The notes beneath the pieces are model-generated. The model ran no database searches. It was not told the origin of the DNA and was given only the letters and a program-made list of their open reading frames with translations. From an uncultured Acidobacteriota bacterium (GTDB lineage Bacteria; Acidobacteriota; Vicinamibacteria; Marinacidobacterales; SMYC01), in NCBI GenBank assembly GCA_947259165.1, contig CAMYKY010000062.1, positions 1 to 30,822 on the forward strand: a stretch of DNA of 30,822 bases, in the 5' to 3' direction. A program made the position numbers and the translations under genes. Below, in pieces: positions 3,331-26,376 of the stretch. The first letter of the stretch is position 1. Each line of letters opens with the position of its first letter.

Positions 3331-3439
3331 TTAACGCAAAGTCGCCAAGGCGCAAAGACGCAAAGAAAAGATTGGCCGAGCGGTTCGGACGAGCCATCCA
3401 CCCCCTTTGCGCCTTCGCGCCTTTGCGACTCTGCGTTAA
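3331..3439. repeat. palindromic CGCAAAG-heptad element (35-bp arms, 39-bp spacer) in the pspA upstream region
   Basis: Left arm is TTAACGCAAAGTCGCCAAGGCGCAAAGACGCAAAG (3331-3365). Right arm is CTTTGCGCCTTCGCGCCTTTGCGACTCTGCGTTAA (3405-3439), the reverse complement with about 85% identity. A further GCCAAGGCGCAACG half-site lies at 3271-3290. A related copy is at 22519-22660 and a fragment at 13739-13754. Confidence 0.6.
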
Positions 3440-3498
3440 AGAACTTACGGTGTCGACTCGTCCCCAGTTGCGCGTGGGCGGCGCTGAGTGAGAGAACA

Positions 3499-6400
3499 TC
3501 ATGTTGCGGGCTCGTCGGTCCCAGGCTCTTCCTCGTCGGTGATGTTCGACAGCGCCGAGACGTTGATCTTCTCGAGCGCTTCCACGAGCTCGGGGATGTC
3601 GTCGACGTACTCGAGTTTGTTGATGAGCGCTTTGATCTTCGGATCGTCGACACCGCGGAATCCCCGAAAGCGATGGGCCATGAACCGCATTAACGGGATC
3701 AGCGTTCCTTCAATAAGGTAGGACTCGCGTGAAATGAGCTCGTAATCGGCCGGCGGCGCCTGCGGCTCTGGCGGCTCGGCGGAGGGGGCGAGCGCGCTTG
3801 CACGCCCATTGCCAAAGGCTTCGAGGAGCTCATGGAGCTTTTCGATATAAGGTCCGAGGTCGAGCTGGACATCAACCTGAGGTGCTGGGGCCGGCTCGGC
3901 GGCCGCGCTGGCAGCAAACGCGAGGTCCGGATCCACAGACGGCGGTACCGGGCGTGATGCTGCTTTCGCTGTCGCCCGGTCGATACTCTCTCCGATACTT
4001 TCAAGGTGCTCGGAAACCATGCTGAGCTGTCCGGTCAGACGTGTCGCGGGGTCGTCGTCGCCACCACCCATGCGCTGGATACGGACGAAGCCTTTCTTGA
4101 TATCCTCCCATCGGGCGCGCTGCGTATCCGTCAAGCGGGCTCGCATCTCGCCGAGCTTGAGGAGATTCTCTTCTGCACCGGTGGTGAGAGTTTGAGACTC
4201 ACCGAGGTAGTGGTCGTCGATGAGGTTTTCGAGCTCTTCGTCGTTCATCGCCGGGACAATCTTTTCAGTGAGCTTGTTCATGTTCCGGTAGCTGCCCTGC
4301 AGCCGGAACGGGGGTTCGGTGCGGTACGCGTCCTCCTGAGATGCGGAGCGGATGTATTGCTGGTTGACGGCTAGAAGTGTCTCCTGCACTTTCAGGAGTT
4401 TCTTCAACACGGATAGAATCTCGCCGATTTCGACCGCCGAGTAGCCGTGTTGGAGCTGGTCGCTCTGGACCGGCTCGCCTTGGGCCATGCGAACCAGCAT
4501 GACGATGTCGTTTTGCTCCCGCGTGGTCAGCGGCGCGAGCACTCCGTTCGACGTTAGAGAATTCTCGATATAGGACAAGGCGAAGAGGTCGCTCTTGCCT
4601 TCGAGAATATCGCCCAGGTTGTAGGTGTCGGCGCGATTGGCCAGCATGTCTGGAATCTGGAACTTTTCCCCGGACTCGGTGTACGGGTTTCCCGCCATAC
4701 AAACGACGAACTTCTTGCCCCGCAGATCGTAGGTGCGGGTGCGTCCTTTCCATACACCTTCGACCTTGCGTTGGGCATCGCACAACGAGATGAACTTCTG
4801 GAGGAACTCGGGATGGGTGTGTTGGATATCGTCGATGTAGAGGAGAACGTTGTTACCCATCTCGAACGCGAGATTGAGCTTTTCGATCTCTTGCCGTGCG
4901 GTGGCGTTACCGGCTTCGGCCGGATCGAGCGACGTCACCGAGTGGCCGAGGGCGGGCCCGTTGATCTTCATGAAGACGAGCCCGAGGCGGTTGGCCAGAT
5001 ACTCCATCAGCGTCGTTTTGCCGTAGCCCGGCGGTGAGATGAGAAGGAGCATGCCCATCAAGTCGGTACGCTTCGCTTCGCCGAGTGCGCCCATTTGCTT
5101 GGCGAGGTTGTCGCCGATCAACGGGAGGTACACGTCGTTGATGAGTCGATTGCGCACGAACGAGGACATCACCTTGGGCTTGTACTCGTCGAGACGCAGG
5201 ACGTCGCGCTCCCGATCCAACACGGCGTGCCGCGCTTTTTGGAAGTCGCGAAAGCCGGGGACGCGTCGGTACCGGAAATGGCCGAGACGTGACAGGAACT
5301 CATCGAGGTGGAGCTGCATGCGGCCCTGCTGGATCCGCGGGTGCTGTCCCAACAAACCCTCGATCGCGACTTTGGCCTGAGCACTCGAAGTTTCGCGGCT
5401 GACCTTGCCTTCGAACAGGATCGCGACAACGGTTTCTTGCGCGGCGCGGACCGGGCGGTCGTTCTTCTCGGCAAAAGTCGTTACCCACGCGAGCGCAACG
5501 TCATAGGCGCGCACCGGCGATTCTCGAAGTCCGCGAAGATCCTGTTCGAAGTCCCGCTCGGCGCCAGATTCTCGCAAGTGTTTATCGAAGGCTTGCTTGA
5601 GCTCGTCGGCTTCCGCACTGAGAACGAATTTCTGGGGCTCACGCGCGATCTCCTGGAGGAGATAAGCGCCCGCGACGCGCGCCGCCCGCTCAGGCACGTC
5701 GATGCCGAGCTCGGACAGATGTTCGACGATCGCCGCGTTGAGCTCGGTGCTGAGCTCGCTCAGCACGTCACTTTGTTCGAAGTGGATACGCAGGCGATGC
5801 AGGCTCTTCGCTTGGCTTTCCCACTCCGAGCGCTTCTTGCGGTCTGGAAACAACGCCCAAAACACCGTGGCGAGCGCTCGCGCTGTCGGTGTGAACCGCA
5901 GCAGGCCGGCACTTTCGTACATGCCGAGCATCTTCTGAAGAATCAGAGCCGCGTCGGCGTCGTGGAGACCGCGCTCGTATCCTTCGTCGTAGCGCTCGGC
6001 CGCGTAGTCCCGCACGGTTGCAAGAAGCTGCTTTTCGACCCGAGTTGCTTCGTGAAGCTTCGCGAGTGAGAGTCCTGCGTCGCCGATTTCAGCGTCTTCG
6101 AGAATGCAATACGCGAGGTATTCCGACCGGTAAACGTCATCGGTCTCGGAGACCAGCTCCTGGTCCCAGAACTCGCGCGTCTTGGAGAAGGCTTCGTCAG
6201 CGATCGCTTCGTAAAAGCCCGTGCCACTCAAGTGAAACGCCATCCCGTCGTCGCGGGGCACCATCGTTAGCTCGAGCGGTTGGGTATTGACGCTGAAGCG
6301 GTGGCGTCCAAACTTGATGACGTTGGCGCCGTCCTCGTAGATTTCCTGGCGATCGCGCAGGCCACGTGCTGCGTCTTCTTTGGCGGCTTTGAGCCGGCCA

Positions 6401-11003: not shown

Positions 11004-11846
11004 TCACGACTCCTCCGTGATCTTCACGGCTTCCGTGAGCGCGGCGTCCACCGGGCCGATGAAGAAGATCCCTTCGGACGGCTCGTAGCGGTAGACGAGT
11101 GCCTGAGTGCCACGTTTTAGATCGTTGTTCTGAGGGCAGCGCACCTCGGCGACAAAGCCCGCGCCACCGTCTTCGATCTCGGCTCGGCCGAATTGTTCGT
11201 CGACGCGCGCCGATAGAACCGTGCACAGCTTCCCCACGAGTGATGCTCGGCGAGGTGCTTGTTGAGTTACGAAGAGTCTTCGGAAAGGCCTCGAGGTCAG
11301 GGCCGCCATCACTAGAGCGCCGAAGCCGGAGGCGACGGCGATGGTGAGACCGGCGAGAAACGTCGCCGCCATGGGGCCCAAGAATCTCGTGGCTAGATAG
11401 CTGATAATCCAAGCCCAGAAGATCGCGAACGTTCCCACGATGGTGATCGGAACGCCGCGTACACCCATGGCGTTCAATATGCCGGACAGGAGGCCACCAC
11501 TGTGTCCGTCGGCCGCCTCCGCCGCACCCTCCGCCGCCGCACCCTCAGCGACTCCCTCAGCGACTCCCTCAGCGACTCCCTCAGCGACTCCCTCAGCGAC
11601 TCCCTCAGCGACTCCCTCAGCGACTCCCTCGAGGGCACCATCCATCACTCCGTCCGCAACGCCGTCGAGGGACTCGATTGCCCCGTCGAATGCAGCGTCC
11701 ATGGAGTCCAGCCCGAGGATGGTGTCGAGGAAGTCGATGTCCAGCGCCCCGAAAATCACCACGAGCCAGTAAAGGAGCGCCATCGCCAGGGCGCACGTGA
11801 ACACGATTGTTGGAAACGACACGAGCGTGGTGAGGAATTCCTGCAC
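11004..11846 (-). CDS. NfeD/YuaF-like membrane protein (C-terminal OB-fold NfeD domain) with internal (GVAE)n repeat
   Basis: Proposed GTG start at 11846 with GGAG 8 nt upstream. The N-terminal portion of the track ORF (11847-12107) looks non-coding. The protein has TM helices flanking a GVAE x7 repeat. The C-terminal soluble segment LVGKLCTVLSARVDEQFGRAEIEDGGAGFVAEVRC..GTQALVYRYE fits the NfeD beta-barrel pattern. Its position immediately upstream of flotillin matches the conserved nfeD-flotillin pair. Confidence 0.65.
   Translation of the reverse strand: MQEFLTTLVSFPTIVFTCALAMALLYWLVVIFGALDIDFLDTILGLDSMDAAFDGAIESLDGVADGVMDGALEGVAEGVAEGVAEGVAEGVAEGVAEGVAEGAAAEGAAEAADGHSGGLLSGILNAMGVRGVPITIVGTFAIFWAWIISYLATRFLGPMAATFLAGLTIAVASGFGALVMAALTSRPFRRLFVTQQAPRRASLVGKLCTVLSARVDEQFGRAEIEDGGAGFVAEVRCPQNNDLKRGTQALVYRYEPSEGIFFIGPVDAALTEAVKITEES
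11545..11628. repeat. perfect 7 x 12-bp tandem repeat (TCAGCGACTCCC) inside the NfeD-like CDS
   Basis: Seven identical units with no synonymous variation, flanked by degenerate copies (11521-11544). On the coding strand they encode (GVAE)7. The repeat is in-frame (12 = 4 codons). Confidence 0.9.
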
Positions 11847-12034
11847 GCTTTCAGCTCCTTTCGACTGACGAGTCGCGGATCGGTCGGTTCGATGACGTGC
11901 CGACGACGCGACAATTAGGCTAAGAGAAGCCTCTCCCGTTCGACAGAAAGCTATCGCTACGCGAGAACCGTGGTTTCGGTTGTAGTTGTGCCGGTTGTGG
12001 TGGTCCGGGCCCTTTGGCTCGAACTCTGCCACCA

Positions 12035-12064
12035 ATAATAAAGCAAACCGGGGCGAAAAATCAA
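12035..12064 (-). promoter_or_regulatory. candidate sigma70-type promoter for the minus-strand six-gene cluster (TTGATT-N18-TATTAT)
   Basis: Read on the minus strand, TTGATT (12064-12059) is followed after 18 nt by TATTAT (12040-12035). This gives a ~180-nt 5' UTR to the GTG at 11846. It is a sequence match only. Confidence 0.25.
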
Positions 12065-12257
12065 GCGCGCATCCAGCGTTTTGCGTCTTCCGGTCACCCG
12101 TGTCCAAGACGTTGTTGCGGTTGTGAAAAGCACAGAGTTTCTTTATGTGTTGTCAGCGGGTGAGCTTCGGACGTGTATAAATTCCTATTCAACAGTGCAT
12201 TGGGGAAGCGTGGTGGCTGAATGCGCGAACGCAGAGTTGCGAATCGGTATTTTCGTC

Positions 12258-14285: not shown

Positions 14286-15917
14286 TCAAACCTCGGCCGT
14301 CTTGGCGCCGGCTCTCATACGGTCCTGCGTGTAAACGGAAATCGCTCCGAAGCCCCATAAGGCGATCGCAGCCGGTACGACGAACTCCAAAATCGGAATC
14401 GACTTCGCCACCATGACCAGAAACAGCCCAAGGGCGAAGCGAATCAGGCCTGCGCTTGCGCTCGTGGGTGTCCCCAGTATCTCGCGACCAATGTAGGCCG
14501 CGACGAAGACTTGTGCAACGTAGAGGCCGACGCCGAGGACGAACAGCGTCGTCAGTCCGAGCGGGGCGCCGACGACCGTGATGGTGACGAAACCGCCGAG
14601 CACGAACAGAATCACCGTGGAGAGGACACCGTAGACGAAGCTTCTGCCGTATTCGGGTACGTGTTTCGTGATGATCACTTCGCTCGCCTCCGGCATCAAG
14701 AGGATGATGACGCTGCCGAAGATGAACGCCGCGGTCCAGAAATAGAAAAACGCCGTCACCCAGGAGATGACGGGACGCTCATGATCTTCCTCCTCCACTC
14801 GCTCGAACACGATCGGCGAGCCTAGCTCGGCTTGGGGGTCGACCTCAGCTTCTTTGGGTCCGTAGTACTTCGTGGTGCCGCCGATCGCGCCTTCGGGGCC
14901 GATCGACAGGCTCTCCGCGGCAACGAGCACCGAGCCGCTGACCCGGGCGCGGATCTCGGTCGTCTTGGCGGCGACGATGATGTCGCTCGGGACCGGGGCG
15001 TCGAAGAATACCTCGCGTCCCGCGGCGATCACGCTGCCGCCGAGGTTCGAGCCGCTGGAGAATCGAAGCGTTCTTCCCGCCGAGGTTACGTTCCTGGCGA
15101 CGTCGCCTTCGATCTCCAGCCGCATTGAGGCAGTGCGGACGCTACCGCCGACGCGGCCCGCTATCTCGATGCTTTCAGCAAAGCCGAGGACGTCGCCGCG
15201 AACCTCACCGGTGATTTGAACGATACTTGCGGCGACAATTAGGTCGCCGTTGATGGTCCCCTCGATGCGGATTTCTTTTCCCTTGATGATGAGGTCCGTC
15301 TCGATCACCTCTCCCGCTCGAAGGGTATACACATCGGCGTCGAGCTCGATGACCGCGGCCGTTGCTCGAGCGGCGGGAAGAACAACTCCGCCCAGGACCA
15401 AGAGCATCAGCGAGAACGACGCCGCGGACGAGCGCCAACGACGCCAGGTCCGATGAGCGATAAAACCGGCAAGGGCGAGCGAGGCGAGTAGCACCACTCC
15501 CTGGATGAATTTCATCAACATATCTGTCCAGCCGCTCCATAGAAGACTTTGAATCAAGACGCTGGTGGCAACGCTCGCGCCGTCTAGGCCTACGGTCTCC
15601 ATGCCGTCGACCACGGGTGCGACATAGCGTGTCCATAGCGACGACACGCCGAGCGTGCCGAAGATGAGCATGGCCACGAGGACCCACGAGATGTCAGCGT
15701 GCCGTGGTCGGATGTGATCGGGTAGCGCCTCGGCGTGCTCGTGCACCGCGGCCCGTAGGAGCTCGGTCTCTGCTTTCAAGGCTTCGTACCCCGCGCGACA
15801 CCTGGCGCATTCGATCAGGTGGGTACGAGTCGCATCCTCGCGATCCCTCGACAACTCTCCCTCGGCGAGCCTCATGATTGTCAGCTCGTCGACATGCTTC
15901 ACATCAGATGCGCTCAT
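14286..15917 (-). CDS. zinc-finger (HxxxCxxC) anti-sigma factor with extracytoplasmic beta-helical bactofilin/DUF4097-like repeats and C-terminal polytopic membrane domain
   Basis: 543 aa. The N-terminus carries H..C..C (HLIECARCR), as in ZAS-type anti-sigma factors. Internal TM helices are followed by repeated G.V.G..I.I.G.V beta-helix-like units (EIRIEGTINGDLIV.., EIEGDVARNVTS..). Four or five C-terminal TM helices follow. The start overlaps the sigma gene stop (ATGA). Confidence 0.7.
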   Translation of the reverse strand: MSASDVKHVDELTIMRLAEGELSRDREDATRTHLIECARCRAGYEALKAETELLRAAVHEHAEALPDHIRPRHADISWVLVAMLIFGTLGVSSLWTRYVAPVVDGMETVGLDGASVATSVLIQSLLWSGWTDMLMKFIQGVVLLASLALAGFIAHRTWRRWRSSAASFSLMLLVLGGVVLPAARATAAVIELDADVYTLRAGEVIETDLIIKGKEIRIEGTINGDLIVAASIVQITGEVRGDVLGFAESIEIAGRVGGSVRTASMRLEIEGDVARNVTSAGRTLRFSSGSNLGGSVIAAGREVFFDAPVPSDIIVAAKTTEIRARVSGSVLVAAESLSIGPEGAIGGTTKYYGPKEAEVDPQAELGSPIVFERVEEEDHERPVISWVTAFFYFWTAAFIFGSVIILLMPEASEVIITKHVPEYGRSFVYGVLSTVILFVLGGFVTITVVGAPLGLTTLFVLGVGLYVAQVFVAAYIGREILGTPTSASAGLIRFALGLFLVMVAKSIPILEFVVPAAIALWGFGAISVYTQDRMRAGAKTAEV

Positions 15918-16468
15918 GGTCCCAACCTCGTCCTCAAGGCACGCCGTGCTCTCAGCAACAACACGCCGGCGAAATTGCTCGAGATACCGAGCACTTCACC
16001 GATCTCCGCGTAGCTCATCTCCGCGAAGTAGCGGAGGATGACCACCAAGCGAGTACGGTCGTCGAGAGTTGCGATGGCGCGGCGAATACTCCGCTTGCTC
16101 TCGTTGATCAGAACCGCCTCTTGGGGCGTCGGCGCTTCCGCTTCGAGCTTCGCGATCTCGTCTTCTGAGTCGTCCAGCTCGGGGCGTCGGCGTCTTTTTC
16201 TGAGCTCGTCCCAGCAATGGTTCGCAGCGACCCGGTAGAGCCAAGGCGCGAACGGGCGGGAGTCATCGTATTGAGACAGCCGCAGCCGGGCTCGGAGAAA
16301 AACCTCTCCGGTCGCATCCTCGGCGTCCTGCCGCGTCGGCAGGGCTCTCCGACAAAGCCTGAAAATGGAAGGTGCCATCATTCGATAGATCTCCGCCCAA
16401 GCTTCGGAATCCCCGTCGCCGGCCCCTCGGGCCAAGCTCGCCAGGTCTTCTTCGCTCGACATTCCCAC
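15914..16468 (-). CDS. ECF (group IV) RNA polymerase sigma factor
   Basis: 184 aa. Region 2 is PWLYRVAANHCWDELRKRR. Region 4 HTH is LRYFAEMSYAEIGEVLGISSNFAGVLLLRARRAL. Confidence 0.85.
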   Translation of the reverse strand: MGMSSEEDLASLARGAGDGDSEAWAEIYRMMAPSIFRLCRRALPTRQDAEDATGEVFLRARLRLSQYDDSRPFAPWLYRVAANHCWDELRKRRRRPELDDSEDEIAKLEAEAPTPQEAVLINESKRSIRRAIATLDDRTRLVVILRYFAEMSYAEIGEVLGISSNFAGVLLLRARRALRTRLGP

Positions 16469-16577
16469 TAACTCGTACGCTCCACGCCGTGGATTATTAC
16501 AGTTAAAACGTGTTTACCCCTGTCCTAATCGAGACTGTGCCGCTGCCCCGTAACGTCCCTGTTACTGAGAAAGCCAT

Positions 16578-16695
16578 CGTGCCCCCGCCCGTGCCCGTGA
16601 GCGTGCCCGAAACCCTAAAAGAACGCATGAGTCCGTCGCGAAAATCGGGCACGGGCACGCACGCGGGCACGGGCACGACGGGTGTGCGGGCACCG
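16578..16695. repeat. GGGCAC-repeat palindromic element, copy A (arms ~32 bp, conserved 36-nt loop)
   Basis: Left arm is CGTGCCCCCGCCCGTGCCCGTGAGCGTGCCCG (16578-16609). The loop is AAACCCTAAAAGAACGCATGAGTCCGTCGCGAAAAT. Right arm is CGGGCACGGGCACGCACGCGGGCACGGGCACG (16646-16677), with an extra GCGGGCAC to 16695. It lies in the divergent promoter region between the ECF sigma and the VOC gene. Copy B is at 25465-25559. Confidence 0.7.
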
Positions 16696-16808
16696 ACTTC
16701 GTCGGCGCCCGAACGTTGCCACACTCCTGACAGGACGGTGTCAGGAGTGGGGGCGTAGTCTTCGGGTGGCTCGGACAGGCCGGGCTGAAAAATCCTAGGA
16801 GACGCTAA

Positions 16809-17213
16809 ATGAATCCAAAGAAGCTCTTACCGATGTTTGTGACCGATAAGCTTGCCGAGACGAAAGCGTTTTATACAGAGAAGGCGGGCTTCACGATCAC
16901 GCATGATCTGGACGGCTATCTATCGGTTCACTATGGGGACGAAGACGGCCCCGAGCTCGCGTTCGCGGCATCAGAGACCGAAGTGATGGGGAAGTTGCCG
17001 CTTTTCCGCGGCGAGGGGATCATCGTGAGCATTCCGACACCGAACGCGGATCGCAAGGCGACGGAGATGGCGAGTCACGGTGTGACGCTCATTGGGGAGC
17101 CAGAGACCCGGCCGTGGGGTTGGCGGAGCTTCATGACCGCCGATCCGAACGGTGTGATCCTGGACTTCTTTCACGTACCGGCTGAGAATGCCGGTGCTGA
17201 TGCGACGGGCTGA
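16809..17213 (+). CDS. VOC/glyoxalase-bleomycin-resistance family protein
   Basis: 134 aa with AGGAG 8 nt upstream of the ATG and a typical paired beta-alpha-beta-beta-beta VOC length and composition. Family assignment is by resemblance only. Confidence 0.6.
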   Translation: MNPKKLLPMFVTDKLAETKAFYTEKAGFTITHDLDGYLSVHYGDEDGPELAFAASETEVMGKLPLFRGEGIIVSIPTPNADRKATEMASHGVTLIGEPETRPWGWRSFMTADPNGVILDFFHVPAENAGADATG

Positions 17214-21579: not shown

Positions 21580-22302
21580 ATGGCTATCAAAGATCTCCTG
21601 ACTTCCGAGGGGCGCCTCAAATTTCGCATCCAACGCAAGACGAAAACGCTCCTGGAGCGTTACGCGCAACACGATGCGCGTATGGAGGCCGCGGACATAT
21701 TGCGTGAGATTGGAACGCCCGAGGCTATCTTCGGACTCGCGCGCCGGTTCTCGTCGACGTCCGAGAATCTTGGTACCGATCAAGAAGAAAAAAAGCGTAT
21801 CCAGGACGTACTCGTTGCGTTCGGCGACGATGCCGTCGAACCGTTGCAGCGCTACATCCGAAGCTACGACAAGGTGACTTGGGCTATCGATGCGTTGAAG
21901 ACGCTCCAACCGCGAGACGCGCTCATCCCGTTCCTGTTCGAGGTGTTGAGCGAGGGAGATCCTGTCCGGATACGAGGGGAAAAAGCTCACCAGATTCTCA
22001 AAGCGCTCGAGAATCTCGACGACCCCAACGTCGTCGATGGGGTCATGCCTTGTCTGTCGAGCTCTGATGACACGGTGCGTATCGCCGCCATCGAATGCCT
22101 CGAGGTGTACGGAGACGAGCGTGCTCGGGAACCGTTGCTCGAAACGCTCGTGAACCCCGACGAGGACTCGATGCGGGTGAAGATGAAAATTGGTGAAGCG
22201 CTCGAAAAGCTCGAGTGGGACGTCAAGGGCTACCGCAAACGAGTCGAAAGCGCTCTTCCCGAGCAGTTCCGGGTGACGTCTAAAGGTCGGATTACGCACT
22301 AG
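21580..22302 (+). CDS. HEAT/PBS-lyase-type repeat protein
   Basis: Repeated DP.VR..A..AL..LGD..A...L helical units, e.g. DPNVVDGVMPCLSSSDDTVRIAAIECLEVYGDERAREPLLETL. The start is taken at MAIKDL. The track ORF starts 27 nt earlier, inside the upstream gene. Confidence 0.55.
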   Translation: MAIKDLLTSEGRLKFRIQRKTKTLLERYAQHDARMEAADILREIGTPEAIFGLARRFSSTSENLGTDQEEKKRIQDVLVAFGDDAVEPLQRYIRSYDKVTWAIDALKTLQPRDALIPFLFEVLSEGDPVRIRGEKAHQILKALENLDDPNVVDGVMPCLSSSDDTVRIAAIECLEVYGDERAREPLLETLVNPDEDSMRVKMKIGEALEKLEWDVKGYRKRVESALPEQFRVTSKGRITH

Positions 22303-22497
22303 TGCTCGGACCCGCTGATCCTGTCGTAAATTCCGGGTCCTTTTCGGCGCTGCCGGCGTTGCGAGCATCGTTGCAGTTCGGCCTACGGCCTATCCCTCCG
22401 CTCGACAAGCTCGCTGCGGAAGGCGGCAAATATCTCTTGGCAGCGCCAAAAATGACCTCGCAATTTACCGACAGGATCAGCGGGTCCAAGCACTAGC
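22297..22497. repeat. ~200-bp unit bounded by 28-bp terminal inverted repeats (ACTAGTGCTCGGACCCGCTGATCCTGTCG ... CGACAGGATCAGCGGGTCCAAGCACTAG)
   Basis: The left TIR (22297-22325) and right TIR (22469-22497) are reverse complements with one mismatch. The unit starts at the HEAT gene stop codon. It is either a MITE-like element or a long structured RNA. Confidence 0.5.
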
Positions 22498-22518
22498 GCC
22501 GCTGTGCCACTAAGAAAG

Positions 22519-22660
22519 TTAACGCAAAGGCGCCAAGGTGCAGAGACGCAAAAAAAGAGCCGTCGTCGGCGCACAATGCAACCACGCACCGCCGAGATCG
22601 AGATCCCAACGCCCCCGTTTGTGCTGGATGGACGTCCGCCCCTTTGCGTTTTATGTTCTT
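22519..22660. repeat. second, more degenerate copy of the CGCAAAG-heptad palindromic element
   Basis: TTAACGCAAAGGCGCCAAGGTGCAGAGACGCAAAAAAAG (22519-22556) is ~85% identical to the left arm at 3331-3365. A remnant right arm CCCCTTTGCGTTTTATG lies at 22637-22655. It is upstream of the SSF transporter gene. Confidence 0.5.
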
Positions 22661-22689: not shown

Positions 22690-24102
22690 GTGAACATCCC
22701 CGTTTCGACGGTCCTCGTTCTTCTCCTCTACCTCGCAGCCGTCACCGCATTTGGCTCCTACCTGGGTCGTCGGCGCAAATCCGTCGACGACTACTTTCTC
22801 GCCGAGCGCAGCGTTCCGTGGTGGGCGATCGCCGCGTGCGTCGTCGCCACCGAAACGAGTGTCCTGACCTTTACGAGTGTTCCCGGCTTTGCATTCACCG
22901 GGGATTGGTCGTTTCTTCAACTCGCGATCGGCTACGTGATCGGTCGCATTCTCATCGCAGCCCTTCTGATCCCGGCGTTTTTCAAGGGCCACGTCTTCAC
23001 GTCCTACGAGCTACTCAAGAATCGCTTTGGACCGTCGGTGCGCAGTGTTGCCGCGGCAGTGTTTCTCGTCTCCCGAACGCTCGCCGACGGCGTCCGCCTC
23101 CACGCGGCGGCGCTGGTGGTGGCGATCGCGATCGGCGTGCCCGAGATTTATTGCATCCTCGTGCTCGCGGCGGTGATGATCGTCTACACCGAGGAGGGGG
23201 GTGTCAAAGCCACCATCTGGACGGACGTGGTTCAGATGTTCGTCTATGTCGCTGGCGCTTTCGTCGTGCTCGGAGCGGTCGTGCGTGTCATTCCCGATGG
23301 CTCGATTAGCGCTGCGATGGCGGCGGCAGCCGATGCCGACAAGCTGCGTGTTTTTGTGCCGACGCTCGATTTGAGTGTGACTTATAGCTTGGGCGCGGGC
23401 GTCATCGGGGGAATGTTTCTCACTATCGCGACCCATGGCACGGACCACTACCTCGTCCAGCGTCTCCTGGTGGCGCGAAGCGCTCGGGAGGCGAGTGCCG
23501 GTTTGGTGCTGTCTGGCTTTCTGGTGATGGCACAGTTCGTTTTGTTTTTGTTCATCGGAACGCTTCTGTGGAGTTACTACGGCGGGAGGGAATTCGCGCG
23601 CGGCGACGACATCTTGCCGACGTTCATTGCGGAACAGCTCCCGGGGCCACTGCTGGGGTTCATTCTCGCCGCCGTTGTGGCCGCGGCACTCTCACCGTCG
23701 CTGAATAGCCTCGCCTCGACTACGTTGAAGGACTTCTATATTCCGTACATCGATGCGAACGTCAGCGAACGACGCCAGATCCAGCTCGGCCGAGTCTTCA
23801 CCATTTTCTGGGGTGTGGCGCAGATGGGCGTCGCCATCTTCGCGCAGCGCGCCTCTTCCGCGCTCGAGGCGGGCCTCGCGGTGTTGTCGCTTGCGTCCGG
23901 ACCCACGGTCGGGGCGTTCCTGCTAGCGGTTATCAGTCGGCGAGCGAGCTCACTCGGAGTGCTCGTCGGTATGTTCGCAGGGCTGTTGGCGCCCTTTCTC
24001 GCGAACCAAGTGACGCCCGTGGCCTGGACTTGGAACGTTTTCATCGGGAGCATGACGACGTTTACCGTCGGATGTCTCGTGAGTCGCTACGGCTCGAAGT
24101 AA
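22690..24102 (+). CDS. sodium:solute symporter family (SSF) transporter
   Basis: 470 aa from a GTG start, with ~12-13 hydrophobic helices. The N-terminal pattern LAERSVPWWAIAACVVATETSVLTFTSVPGFAF is characteristic of SSF (PutP/PanF-like) transporters. Confidence 0.75.
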   Translation: MNIPVSTVLVLLLYLAAVTAFGSYLGRRRKSVDDYFLAERSVPWWAIAACVVATETSVLTFTSVPGFAFTGDWSFLQLAIGYVIGRILIAALLIPAFFKGHVFTSYELLKNRFGPSVRSVAAAVFLVSRTLADGVRLHAAALVVAIAIGVPEIYCILVLAAVMIVYTEEGGVKATIWTDVVQMFVYVAGAFVVLGAVVRVIPDGSISAAMAAAADADKLRVFVPTLDLSVTYSLGAGVIGGMFLTIATHGTDHYLVQRLLVARSAREASAGLVLSGFLVMAQFVLFLFIGTLLWSYYGGREFARGDDILPTFIAEQLPGPLLGFILAAVVAAALSPSLNSLASTTLKDFYIPYIDANVSERRQIQLGRVFTIFWGVAQMGVAIFAQRASSALEAGLAVLSLASGPTVGAFLLAVISRRASSLGVLVGMFAGLLAPFLANQVTPVAWTWNVFIGSMTTFTVGCLVSRYGSK

Positions 24103-25082
24103 GGAAGGACCTCCTCGCCGAGCATCCTAATGGCGTCGTGTTCATGGACGCCGTGTGGAGTCCCGAGCTCGAAGACGTCGACGCCCGCGTCGAAGAGCCG
24201 TTCCATCTGTGCAATGACGTCGCGAGGTGTTCCGAAGACGCAGAATCGGCGCAGTGTTTCCGGGGAAATCGCAGCCGCTGCAGCGTCAGTGTCGCCGCGC
24301 GCGAGCGCTACCTCGATGCGTCCGAGCTCGTTCTCGGGCACGGTGTAGGTCGGATCGAGTCTACCGGCGACGGCGATGTACATTGCGACGTTGCGCCGGG
24401 CGACGACTTCGGCAATGCGCGGATCGCGATCGACCACGGTGACAGCTCCGTAAATCAAGTGGATGGACGCGGGGTCGCGCCCGGCGCGCTGTGCGCCCTG
24501 ATTGACGTAGCCGCGAAAGGTCGCTGCGCTATCGGGGTTCGCGCACCCGCCGATCTTGACCATGTCGGCGATCGCTCCGCCCAGCCCGAGGGTGCGGGGG
24601 CCCCAGCCACCGATAAGGACGGGTAGGCGGCGATTTGGGATCGGAAAACGAAGGTAGGCGTCGGCAGATGCGCTGAAGAGCTCTCCGGAGTAAGGAGTTC
24701 GATCGCCTTCAAGGAAACGTTGTACCAACTCGACCATTTCGCGGATCGCAACGAGAGGTTTTGGTTGAGCCACCGCAATCGCGTCGAAAAACGCGCCACG
24801 TCCGACCCCGAGATACGCGCGGCCGCGACTCAATTCGTCGAGCATCGCGAGGTGGCCTGCTACCAACACTGGGTGAGCGAGGTAGGGATTGACGACGGCA
24901 GGGCCGACGAGGGGAGCGGAAGTGAGCTCTGCGAAATGAAACAAGGCCGGCCAGGGAGGTTGAAAAAACAAATCCTGATAAACGCTTACAGCATTGAACT
25001 CGTAGAGATCGACGAGCGCCGCTAACTCGCGATACTCATCGACGGACTTGTCACTTTGGAAGGAAACCGCGAAGCGGGCCAT
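24087..25082 (-). CDS. LLM-class (luciferase-like) flavin-dependent oxidoreductase
   Basis: 331-aa TIM-barrel-like sequence with LLM family features (N-terminal MARFAVSFQ.., ...VLIGGWGPRTLGL.., ...CVFGTPRDVIAQMERL). The 3' end overlaps the convergent SSF gene by 16 bp. Confidence 0.65.
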   Translation of the reverse strand: MARFAVSFQSDKSVDEYRELAALVDLYEFNAVSVYQDLFFQPPWPALFHFAELTSAPLVGPAVVNPYLAHPVLVAGHLAMLDELSRGRAYLGVGRGAFFDAIAVAQPKPLVAIREMVELVQRFLEGDRTPYSGELFSASADAYLRFPIPNRRLPVLIGGWGPRTLGLGGAIADMVKIGGCANPDSAATFRGYVNQGAQRAGRDPASIHLIYGAVTVVDRDPRIAEVVARRNVAMYIAVAGRLDPTYTVPENELGRIEVALARGDTDAAAAAISPETLRRFCVFGTPRDVIAQMERLFDAGVDVFELGTPHGVHEHDAIRMLGEEVLPYFEP

Positions 25083-25400
25083 TTAAGTCAATTCGTTCTT
25101 GACGAGCTCGACTTTCTCGAGTCGCTCGATGCGCATGACGAGGCCTTCGTCCGGGTCGGGGCACACGACGGTGCTATCGGAAGCGAGCCAGTCGTTCTCA
25201 TCGAGCTCGCGCTGCTTCGCGGCCAGAAGCGGCAACACCGCGCCGAGGGCGTAGATGCAAAAATGCCGACCCTCGGGAAGAATGAGCTGGGCGCTATTGC
25301 GAAGCTCGAACCAATCTCCGACCTTCATACCGCACACCGATCTGCCGCGAATCTCGGTCACCGTAACCCGAAGGTTATAGAGCGAAAAGGAGCTGGTCAT
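25083..25400 (-). CDS. small (105 aa) Cys/His-containing protein of unknown function, co-transcribed with LLM oxidoreductase
   Basis: AGAGG 10 nt upstream of the ATG, and the gene abuts the LLM start with no gap. Conserved-looking C..H..C...C spacing. It may belong to a TIGR04076-like small-protein family, but I cannot verify this. Confidence 0.45.
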   Translation of the reverse strand: MTSSFSLYNLRVTVTEIRGRSVCGMKVGDWFELRNSAQLILPEGRHFCIYALGAVLPLLAAKQRELDENDWLASDSTVVCPDPDEGLVMRIERLEKVELVKNELT

Positions 25401-25464
25401 GGGTGAAGACCTCTAAGACGAGACTGGGGGAGGAGCCGCTAAGAAGCACATCGCTACCGACCCT

Positions 25465-25559
25465 CGTGCCCGTGTCCGCATGCGTGCTCGAAAAACCTCC
25501 AGAAAACGCATGGATCCGTCGAGGAATCGGGCACGGGCACGCACGCGGGCACGGGCACG
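25465..25559. repeat. GGGCAC-repeat palindromic element, copy B
   Basis: The right arm CGGGCACGGGCACGCACGCGGGCACGGGCACG (25528-25559) is identical 32/32 to copy A. The loop AAAAACCTCCAGAAAACGCATGGATCCGTCGAGGAAT is ~75% identical to copy A, and the left arm CGTGCCCGTGTCCGCATGCGTGCTCG has diverged. It lies between the methyltransferase stop and the small-protein/LLM operon start. Confidence 0.7.
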
Positions 25560-25587
25560 ATTTCCGTTGCCTTTGACGGAAGAGACA

Positions 25588-26376
25588 TTAAACAGCTGCT
25601 TTCCTGCAGAAGGCCATCAGGTGCCATCCCAGGGGGCGGACCCAGGATTTTGGCAGGGTGTTGAATGTCCCGACGAACACGTTGTTGAAGGCGAAGCCTT
25701 TCCAGCCGCCGTGGAGGCGCGATTTCACCGGGAAACGCTCCGGCACGATGCGGACGTCGTCAAAGACGGAAAGGAGAGCGCGGTACTCGGCGATCGAGTA
25801 CTTTTTCAGCACGGGCGCGTCCTCGTGTTCGAGCTCGACGTGCATGAGCTTCGACAGGCCGTTGAGCCAGGATATCCGGTTGTAGACCATGAAGATGGCG
25901 ACTCCGTTATTGCGCACAACACGCCGACATTCCGCGATCATCTTGTCGGCAGCGGCAGTGTATTGGAGCACGCCATGGCCGTAGACGACGTCGAACGAGT
26001 CGTCCTCGAACGGTAGAGCTTCACCGTTGGCGAGCTCGAGATTCATGCTGACCCCGGCGTGGCGCGCGTTTTTGTCCGCGAGTGCCAAAGCCGTCTCGGA
26101 GATGTCGACGCCGGTGACGTCCGCACCCCCTTTGGCGAAACGGACGAGATCGGTACCGATACCGCAGCCGACCTCGAGGAGTTTCTTTCCTGAGTAGCCA
26201 TTGAAGTCGACGACGTTCGGTAGATAGCGAAGTTTGTCGAATCGGTACTCGTCGAGGTCCGCAAAAAACTCGGCCGTTCCCGGCGCATGCGGGGTCATCT
26301 CCAAGTCGTGGATGCGCTCGTTCCAGTAGTGCTGGACCTGTCCGAGCAGGCTGTCGGCATCGACCCCAGTTTCCAT
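25588..26376 (-). CDS. class I SAM-dependent methyltransferase
   Basis: Motif I LLEVGCGIGTDL, the acidic loop DISETAL and motif post-I DVVYGHGVLQY. 262 aa. Confidence 0.8.
   Translation of the reverse strand: METGVDADSLLGQVQHYWNERIHDLEMTPHAPGTAEFFADLDEYRFDKLRYLPNVVDFNGYSGKKLLEVGCGIGTDLVRFAKGGADVTGVDISETALALADKNARHAGVSMNLELANGEALPFEDDSFDVVYGHGVLQYTAAADKMIAECRRVVRNNGVAIFMVYNRISWLNGLSKLMHVELEHEDAPVLKKYSIAEYRALLSVFDDVRIVPERFPVKSRLHGGWKGFAFNNVFVGTFNTLPKSWVRPLGWHLMAFCRKAAV

Follow-up and report, generated by a model that had tools for sequence, protein, structure and literature searches.

The window analyzed here is contig CAMYKY010000062.1 in its entire length of 30,822 nt (30.8 kb), from an uncultured Acidobacteriota bacterium, and it carries two hairpin-forming units, copies A and B, whose arms are built of GTGCCC and GGGCAC hexamers. 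Are these units regulatory sites of the genes beside them, or are they mobile repeats that happen to have landed there? Our data suggest that they are probably miniature members of a family of hairpin cassettes that resemble the intervening sequences (IVSs) of rRNA, have arms composed of hexamer arrays, and are associated with four-helix-bundle genes of the PF05635 family. The window members lack the open reading frame (ORF) that the full-length cassettes carry.

Two hairpin units share an identical G-rich arm

Each unit consists of a C-rich arm, a loop, and a G-rich arm (Table 1). A preliminary description of this DNA, made from the letters alone, had proposed two ~100-bp hairpin units with GTGCCC and GGGCAC arms, and this was borne out by a repeat search and by folding against shuffled sequences. 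For copies A and B, on either strand, the predicted folding energy was -61 to -75 kcal/mol, corresponding to z = -4.8 to -5.6 relative to the shuffles, none of which folded as well. The best inverted pair of copy B (25464-25490 and 25534-25560) spans 27 nt with 89% complementarity. Together with the AATC that precedes it, the G-rich arm is identical between the copies at 36 of 36 positions (16643-16678 and 25525-25560, a spacing of 8882 nt). The perfect identity described earlier was therefore correct, but its true length is 36 nt, not 32 nt. Likewise, the four to five GGGCAC repeats attributed to this arm resolve into four exact units and a fifth that is the variant GCACGC. The loop, described as conserved, does contain AACGCATGRRTCCGTCG in both copies, a motif absent from the remaining window, but the two loops are otherwise related only, and that of copy A measures 34 nt. 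With at most one mismatch allowed, the arm sequence GGGCACGGGCAC has five matches in the window, all of them within copies A and B, compared to 0.24 in shuffles.

At the gathering score, Rfam 15 returned neither a relevant family nor rRNA in the window or in 18 loci from other genomes that bear the element, and relaxing the threshold to E <= 10 on copy A gave no relevant match.

The same arm recurs in other genomes, intergenic and usually inverted

How widely is this arm distributed? A scan of one genome collection with GGGCACGCNNNCGGGCACGGGC, a pattern that includes part of the arm, returned at least 117 loci, and the frequencies given below refer to the loci listed. Among them, matches in high-GC genomes (Streptomyces, Nocardia, and myxobacteria) for the most part resemble chance hits within coding sequence. 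At least ~70 loci have a G+C content of 37 to 50%, and in these the arm is intergenic and usually forms an inverted pair. The low-GC hosts are environmental Chlamydiota, Verrucomicrobiota, Coxiellaceae, and a gammaproteobacterial metagenome-assembled genome (MAG), with fewer loci from Gemmataceae, Pseudomonadota, and one unclassified MAG. The element is present in at least 34 assemblies, and the 78 kb sampled from JABDAY, a Chlamydiae MAG, contain at least 15 elements. A scan of viral contigs yielded five matches.

BLAST comparison of the window with all loci revealed similarity that was limited to the arms, with unrelated loops and flanks. Within the arms, identity reached 100% over 35 to 38 nt in seven loci from Parachlamydiales and Verrucomicrobiae MAGs. 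The copy A arm matches 35 to 36 nt in L012, L054, L070, L078, L082, and L105 (Parachlamydiales) and in L018 (Verrucomicrobiae), and the copy B arm matches 37 to 38 nt in L070, L012, L078, L082, L105, and L018. The arm consensus is (A/G)ATC-(GGGCAC)1-2-GCAC(G/A)C-(GGGCAC)2-3-GA(AA). Its ATC and GA(AA) flanks were not dictated by the scan pattern. The architecture of the window arm, RR-GCACGC-RR, is among the four commonest. The window copies thus have the features of the GGGCAC class of hexamer-arm cassettes, that is, inverted arms of ~4 to 6 GNGCCC/GGGCNC units in an ATC...GA frame. The combined loop-plus-arm pattern had no matches in metagenome contigs, so the loop subfamily of the window was not found elsewhere.

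The low-GC loci revealed two topologies: 23 elements are arranged C-loop-G, as in the window, and 18 are arranged G-loop-C, alongside many single arms. For the 73 elements in these loci, the flanking genes are codirectional in 28 cases, convergent in 15, and divergent in 10; another 10 elements lie inside "ORFs" that are mostly produced by the stop-free arms themselves. When the codirectional cases were counted by hand, 25 of the 28 elements were closer to the upstream gene's stop codon, at a typical distance of 10 to 40 nt (two-sided binomial test by hand, ~3e-5, against a crude null of 0.5). The position of copy B fits this pattern. Clustering of neighbor genes in the sampled low-GC and related loci revealed no gene family that recurs beside the elements.

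Several MAG contigs break off within a GGGCAC/GTGCCC arm (L012, 7695-7744; L019, 5078-5106; L017, 23-52; L031, 6449-6479), which indicates that the repeat breaks short-read assemblies. In Parachlamydiales SW_18, hairpins of the CACAGAG/CTCTGTG type directly adjoin single GGGCAC arms (L054, 6380-6570; L070, 7600-7790), which suggests that several families of repeat-armed hairpins reside in this one genome.

Hexamer-array arms enclose many PF05635 genes

What do the arms enclose when they are farther apart? In four loci (L087, L056, L007, and L116), a PF05635 gene, whole or in part, is located between the arms or next to them. In L087 (Verrucomicrobia SZAS-6), the arms are 1.5 kb apart, with a 117-aa ORF and a gene for an IS630 transposase between them; the ORF matches PF05635, annotated "23S rRNA-intervening sequence protein," at E = 6e-23. 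Searches with tblastn revealed a PF05635 gene 68% identical to this ORF exactly between the arms of L056 (Chlamydiae JABDAY) and a homologue with 31% identity adjoining the GTGCCC arm of L007. L116 retains an internal PF05635 fragment, RMAKRPSTECAAIVDAC, within a 103-nt hairpin loop, and this short form is a deletion product. In JABDAY, the ORF-less hairpins and the ORF-bearing L056 cassette have their arms, their purine-rich outer flanks, and their loop ends (GAAAGAGAAGA...CTCTTTC) in common; forms with and without the ORF coexist with the same arms. Full-length PF05635 forms with arms of the GGGCAC class were found in L056, L087, L146, L147, L152, and L156.

A reciprocal test took the protein as its starting point. 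We collected 80 metagenome loci encoding relatives of this four-helix-bundle protein, of which 68 had usable flanks, and scored as significant those inverted arms of at least 20 nt with z > 5 relative to shuffles. Such arms flanked the gene at 43 of the 68 loci. The mean self-identity of the arms at these 43 loci was 0.70 at a lag of 6 and 0.68 at a lag of 12, compared to ~0.24 at other lags. Upstream flanks contained a run of at least five similar hexamers in 51% of cases and downstream flanks in 69%, compared to 2.7% of control windows, and the run lengths peaked at 5 to 6 units. The hexamer class varied among loci and followed the cluster to which the PF05635 protein belongs: GTGCCC, GAGCCC, and GTCCCC in the cluster of the query; GGGGTC/GGTATC in a second; TAATCG, TAATCT, and TACTCT in a third; GACGGC in a fourth; and GTGCTC/GTGCAC in a fifth.

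Read on the sense strand, the ORF cassettes of the GGGCAC class have the order AATC-(GTGCCC)n-GAA, ribosome-binding site, ATG, gene, (A)ATC-(GGGCAC)n-GA. The window copies have this layout as well when read on the minus strand, with a perfectly conserved C-arm, then GATT..CGACGGAnnC-ATG-CGT-T(C)T-TT.., and then a degenerate G-arm. On this strand, the copy A loop reads GATTTTCGCGACGGACTC-ATG-CGT-TCT-TTT... (MxxF), which we compared with the ORF-bearing locus L137 (ATGCGTCATTTT). The window loops could conceivably be a remnant of a cassette leader and first codons from which nearly the whole ORF has been lost.

Two of the PF05635 loci have peculiarities of their own. In L087, the IS630-family transposase gene is a neighbor of the four-helix-bundle gene within the cassette (4312-5875); it is a single case and probably a secondary insertion. 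In L007 (Sandaracinaceae), C-rich hexamer arrays at 4080-4190 and 4800-4960 (GAGTCC/GCGTCC/GTGCCC upstream and GTCCGC/CTCCGC downstream) flank the PF05635 gene in direct orientation, unlike the inverted arms elsewhere.

Both copies appear as insertions specific to this lineage

Copy A lies between two divergent genes, encoding an extracytoplasmic function (ECF) sigma factor and a glyoxalase of the vicinal oxygen chelate (VOC) type. The sigma gene is followed by a gene for a 543-aa bactofilin-domain protein, and the VOC gene is followed by a gene for a helix-turn-helix (HTH)-WYL regulator. Copy B lies within a run of minus-strand genes. It begins 27 nt past the stop codon of an S-adenosylmethionine (SAM)-methyltransferase gene, and its other end is 61 nt from the start of a 105-aa ORF, after which comes a gene for a luciferase-like monooxygenase (LLM).

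Table 1. Positions of the two hairpin units and of the features around them in the window
Feature	Position	Strand	Description
Copy A, whole unit	16574-16681		GGGCAC/GTGCCC hairpin
Copy A, C-rich arm	16574-16610	+	37 nt, GTGCCC-type hexamers, partly degenerate; 78% complementary to 16645-16681
Copy A, loop	16611-16644	+	34 nt
Copy A, G-rich arm with AATC	16643-16681	+	AATC GGGCAC GGGCAC GCACGC GGGCAC GGGCAC GA
Additional GGGCAC unit	16688-16693	+	Immediately outside copy A
Copy B, whole unit	25461-25561		GGGCAC/GTGCCC hairpin
Copy B, C-rich arm	25461-25490	+	Degenerate: GTGCCC GTGTCC GCATGC GTGCTC
Copy B, loop	25491-25524	+	Related to copy A loop
Copy B, G-rich arm	25525-25561 (as hairpin arm, 25527-25561)	+	Identical to copy A G-rich arm
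ECF sigma gene	15914-16468	-	
ECF-type promoter-like motif, TGTAATAATCC-N8-GGAGCGTA	16476-16501	-	Between sigma gene and copy A, outside the element
Glyoxalase/VOC gene	16809-17213	+	
187-nt spacer	25401-25587	-	Methyltransferase stop to small-ORF start; inserted DNA including copy B
SAM-methyltransferase gene	25588-26376	-	

Among named homologues, those closest to the window sigma factor and LeuB belong to Vicinamibacteria (Acidobacteriota), with 63 to 73% identity, and on this basis the phylum assignment is probable. For comparison with relatives, we used 14 loci totaling ~150 kb: L123 to L126, with sigma factors 84 to 92% identical to that of the window (L126, 92%); L127 to L134, with methyltransferases at least 90% identical; and L215 and L216, of 21 kb each, with LeuB 88% identical and full synteny with the window. 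None of these 14 loci contained an array of two or more neighboring GGGCAC or GTGCCC units. L126 has the same VOC-WYL/sigma arrangement as the window, without the arms, and its intergenic region is 242 nt long compared to 340 nt in the window. From the methyltransferase stop to the small-ORF start, the distance is 6 nt in L127 and 187 nt in the window, and in L215 the genes overlap. Because the genes abut or overlap in these relatives, the ~180 nt to which copy B belongs are an insertion between closely packed genes. Judged from these sequence comparisons, both copies are insertions specific to this lineage, and the window copies thus show presence/absence polymorphism between close relatives.

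The genes downstream of copy B differ in another respect. The small-ORF/LLM pair (24087-25400 in the window) is mostly lost in relatives (L127, 6797-7253; L215, 18800-19030), where the small ORF is truncated and LLM is reduced to its C-terminal ~98 aa. Both genes are intact in the window.

How the window elements may have arisen and what they may do

As members of the PF05635-associated cassette family, the window elements are most likely selfish insertions. In this family, the arms are inverted arrays of about five hexamers, which in the window are of the GGGCAC/GTGCCC class. The short forms would derive from full-length cassettes by deletion and would be spread or maintained nonautonomously, in the fashion of miniature inverted-repeat transposable elements (MITEs). 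For such spread, the hexamer arrays would have to be recognized in a sequence-specific manner, possibly through the four-helix-bundle protein acting in trans. Once transcribed, the ~30-bp G+C-rich stem could act as do the stem of an rRNA IVS or the hairpin of a repetitive extragenic palindrome, serving as an RNase III substrate and/or as a 3'-end barrier for the upstream message. Copy A, located upstream of the sigma promoter, is probably without effect. As a possible side effect, copy B would probably uncouple or process the methyltransferase/small-ORF/LLM transcript.

Several observations weigh against this explanation. The window itself has no similarity to PF05635, and only two copies are visible in its 30.8 kb. 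Neither the window copies nor the other element loci inspected showed a target-site duplication or defined termini, and the exact insertion borders could not be mapped in MAFFT alignments of filled and empty sites, since the empty-site flanks are too diverged. The occurrence of two arm topologies argues against classical transposon ends. The direction of derivation is seen for L116 only, and both loss of the ORF and its insertion into a preexisting hairpin are possible. The family counts and taxonomic spread come from biased samples, namely, the loci listed by a scan that itself required part of the arm. At the RNA level, 41 stems showed no bias toward G·U pairs on the sense strand (36 versus 46; P = 0.32), and transversions exceeded transitions among their mismatches; because of the missing G·U bias and the transversion excess, there is no positive evidence that the stems are selected as RNA. 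A terminator scan revealed no U-tract, and hence no intrinsic terminator, at copy A or copy B, and the orientation of the ORF cassettes relative to neighboring genes was not significantly biased.

Could the arms be read by a protein? Selection for complementarity alone would permit drift, which argues that the arm sequence itself is read by something. The preliminary description had favored a protein reading the GGGCAC array. Such predicted binding is plausible, given that the arm sequence is conserved across phyla and that the hexamer type covaries with the protein clade. The obvious candidate for this role, we infer, is the four-helix-bundle protein that the cassettes encode. A bolder version of this idea holds that the hexamer arrays are recognition sites of the enclosed PF05635 protein, that a homo-oligomer reads about five tandem hexamers, that protein clades and hexamers (GTGCCC, GAGCCC, GGGGTC, TAATCG, GACGGC, GTGCTC, and others) have coevolved, and that the pair propagates or protects the cassette and its miniatures, rRNA IVSs included. 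The closest solved structure, 2GSC (XCC0516), has five chains in its entry and is described as a homopentamer (PMC4990558). The notion that a pentamer reads exactly five hexamers is weakened by the run lengths, which peak at 5 to 6 units and not at 5. We put this version forward tentatively and consider it unlikely.

Likeness to rRNA intervening sequences and the possibility that the hairpins came first

The PF05635 family, also named S23p, was first seen inside 23S rRNA IVSs, whose complementary ends pair into a stem of ~28 bp that RNase III cleaves (PMC4990558). These IVSs are regarded as selfish, with an unknown mechanism of mobility (PMC4990558, PMC11270868). Like the rRNA IVSs with an S23p ORF in Leptospira and Coxiella burnetii, the cassettes consist of a small PF05635 ORF within complementary ends that form a stem of ~28 to 30 bp, and their sporadic distribution likewise suggests horizontal spread (PMC4990558, PMC11270868). 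Short forms without the ORF exist among the rRNA insertions, too. Unlike the rRNA IVSs, the elements described here lie in ordinary intergenic DNA, with no rRNA gene in the window; their arms are hexamer arrays whose type covaries with the protein clade; and their ORF-less copies are dispersed, with many per genome. The stem in our case is predicted, and its cleavage by RNase III is proposed by analogy.

The family is also related to Avd of the diversity-generating retroelements (PMC10053308). The four-helix-bundle fold and family are homologous, and Avd has an accessory role associated with nucleic acids (PMC10053308), but no reverse transcriptase or template/variable repeats were present beside the sampled cassettes.

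One alternative keeps the same parts and reverses their order. The short hairpins would be primary, as terminators, mRNA stabilizers, or processing sites; the PF05635 genes would be independent mobile ORFs with hairpin loops as their homing sites; and the window copies would never have carried an ORF. The strong bias of the listed elements toward positions 10 to 40 nt after stop codons agrees with this, as does the location of rRNA IVSs in helix loops (PMC4990558), and the JABDAY ORF cassette, in which the short form's loop ends are preserved at either side, could be explained equally by insertion and by deletion. However, the L116 loop with its internal ORF fragment is a deletion product, no U-tract was found, and the hexamer class tracks the protein clade over many classes, a pattern more readily understood if arms and gene move together. 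We therefore regard an origin of the hairpins ahead of the ORF as rather improbable.

Comparison with REP sequences and MITEs

Are the elements ordinary repetitive extragenic palindromes (REPs), with two inverted REP units forming a REPIN that is mobilized by a REP-associated tyrosine transposase (RAYT)? By definition, REP/REPIN sequences are imperfect palindromes of 20 to 40 nt with a GTAG or CGTC tag and an association with RAYT genes (PMC3733652). The elements are similar in being short, extragenic, inverted doublets that occur head-to-head and tail-to-tail, as REP dimers do (PMC3733652), mostly in 3' untranslated or intercistronic positions and in many copies per genome, and one relative's locus, L215, contains a Y1_Tnp gene, the only one seen. 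Yet L215 has no GGGCAC array. A single unit is a direct hexamer array and not a small palindrome, and it does not form a stable stem-loop on its own, since the isolated arm folds at only -10 kcal/mol. The arm ends (ATCG...CGA) lack the GTAG or CGTC tag; among the low-GC and related loci sampled, the elements have no recurrent neighbor gene family and hence no RAYT; and the arms enclose a PF05635 gene instead of a transposase gene. Mobilization by a RAYT is thus very improbable.

The resemblance to MITEs lies in a noncoding miniature whose inverted arms recur in a longer, ORF-bearing form of the same genome (JABDAY). Another shared trait is that close relatives are polymorphic for the insertion. 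Unlike MITEs, the elements have no visible target-site duplication, their ORF-bearing partner encodes PF05635 without a recognizable transposase, they have two arm topologies, and in several subfamilies the hairpin extends past the conserved arm.

A conserved candidate sigma promoter lies outside the element

The preliminary description had read the element as a shared cis-regulatory module, in which a regulator bound to the GGGCAC x4 array cocontrols the sigma/anti-sigma and small-protein/LLM operons and which might be the autoregulatory target of the ECF sigma factor. Both copies do lie upstream of minus-strand genes in the same orientation, and one arm is perfectly conserved between them. 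However, the element is missing from the loci of the sigma orthologues (84 to 92% identity), where a different ECF-type motif has been kept. In the window this motif, TGTAATAATCC-N8-GGAGCGTA, has a single occurrence, compared to none in shuffles, and nothing similar was found upstream of the small-ORF/LLM genes. The form CTGTAATAATCC-N8/9-GGAGCGTA is common to the window and the orthologous sigma loci (L123 to L126 and L215), about 35 to 60 nt upstream of the sigma start codon. We consider the motif a conserved candidate autoregulatory site and likely the real sigma promoter. Because it is outside the element, unique, and not present before the LLM operon, an autoregulatory target shared with that operon is unsupported.

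The genomic context points the same way. Both copies had been placed in promoter regions of minus-strand operons, but copy B adjoins the methyltransferase stop codon, 27 nt past it, inside inserted DNA. A sigma-70 promoter scan gave no match at either copy. In other genomes, the identical arm stands beside unrelated genes in all orientations, and dozens of copies regardless of gene orientation do not fit a dedicated regulatory module. These data largely refute the regulatory reading, to which we now assign only a slight probability. The fallback offered at the time, a REP/MITE-like repeat, was essentially right in that many copies exist elsewhere, intergenic and with any gene orientation.

Last, each G-rich arm has four GGG tracts (GGG-N3-GGG-N9-GGG-N3-GGG), but the idea that it forms a G-quadruplex, with an i-motif in the C-rich arm, and thereby acts on replication or transcription can practically be dismissed, as folding with quadruplex energies chose no quadruplex, not even when the arm was isolated, each arm always has a fully complementary partner nearby, and sister classes (TAATCG, TAATCT, and GTGCTC) have no G-tracts.

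Implications

Locally, the analysis removes a tempting but wrong regulatory hypothesis and identifies the likely real sigma promoter. To our knowledge, the S23p family is very common, and no function has been established for it over three decades. PF05635 genes between hexamer arrays, with hexamers that track the protein clade, provide a testable handle, in which the protein can be assayed against its own array and RNase III against the stems. Recognition of hexamers by the protein, if true, would be the first function for the S23p/IVP family and would establish a novel type of mobile or self-maintaining element.

The ORF-less versions act as dispersed hairpin repeats in several phyla, environmental Chlamydiota included, where a G+C-rich repeat that apparently moves between phyla is found in A+T-rich symbiont genomes and is a source of assembly breaks. 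This widespread family of hairpin repeats is apparently undescribed. In open-access full texts, the arm GGGCACGGGCAC had no match and GTGCCCGTGCCC appeared only in two unrelated papers on mouse. The open-access literature held no description of hexamer-array arms around PF05635 genes or of dispersed ORF-less forms, although an earlier description elsewhere is possible.

Other repeats in the window

The window contains further repeats. A second hairpin-repeat family, at 3331-3440 and 22519-22650, has arms of tandem ~8-nt (A/G)CGCAAAG units, TTAACGCAAAGTCGCCAAGGCGCAAAGACGCAAAG and CTTTGCGCCTTCGCGCCTTTGCGACTCTGCGTTAA. Its first copy lies ~59 nt past the stop of a gene for a 1798-aa DUF3686 protein, and its second copy is degenerate. 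A 31-nt inverted repeat (22296-22326 and 22469-22499), 94% complementary with a 142-nt spacer, is intergenic and precedes a sodium:solute symporter gene.

Between copy A and the VOC gene, ~60 nt upstream of the VOC start codon, lies a perfect 9-bp palindrome, CTCCTGACA-N6-TGTCAGGAG (16725-16748). Its stem is conserved in L126 and its spacer is variable, and it is a candidate operator for the downstream HTH-WYL regulator. Finally, a 12-nt tandem repeat, CTCAGCGACTCC and variants, is present in at least seven copies at 11505-11636, within a 367-aa ORF (11004-12107, minus strand) that has no Pfam match.

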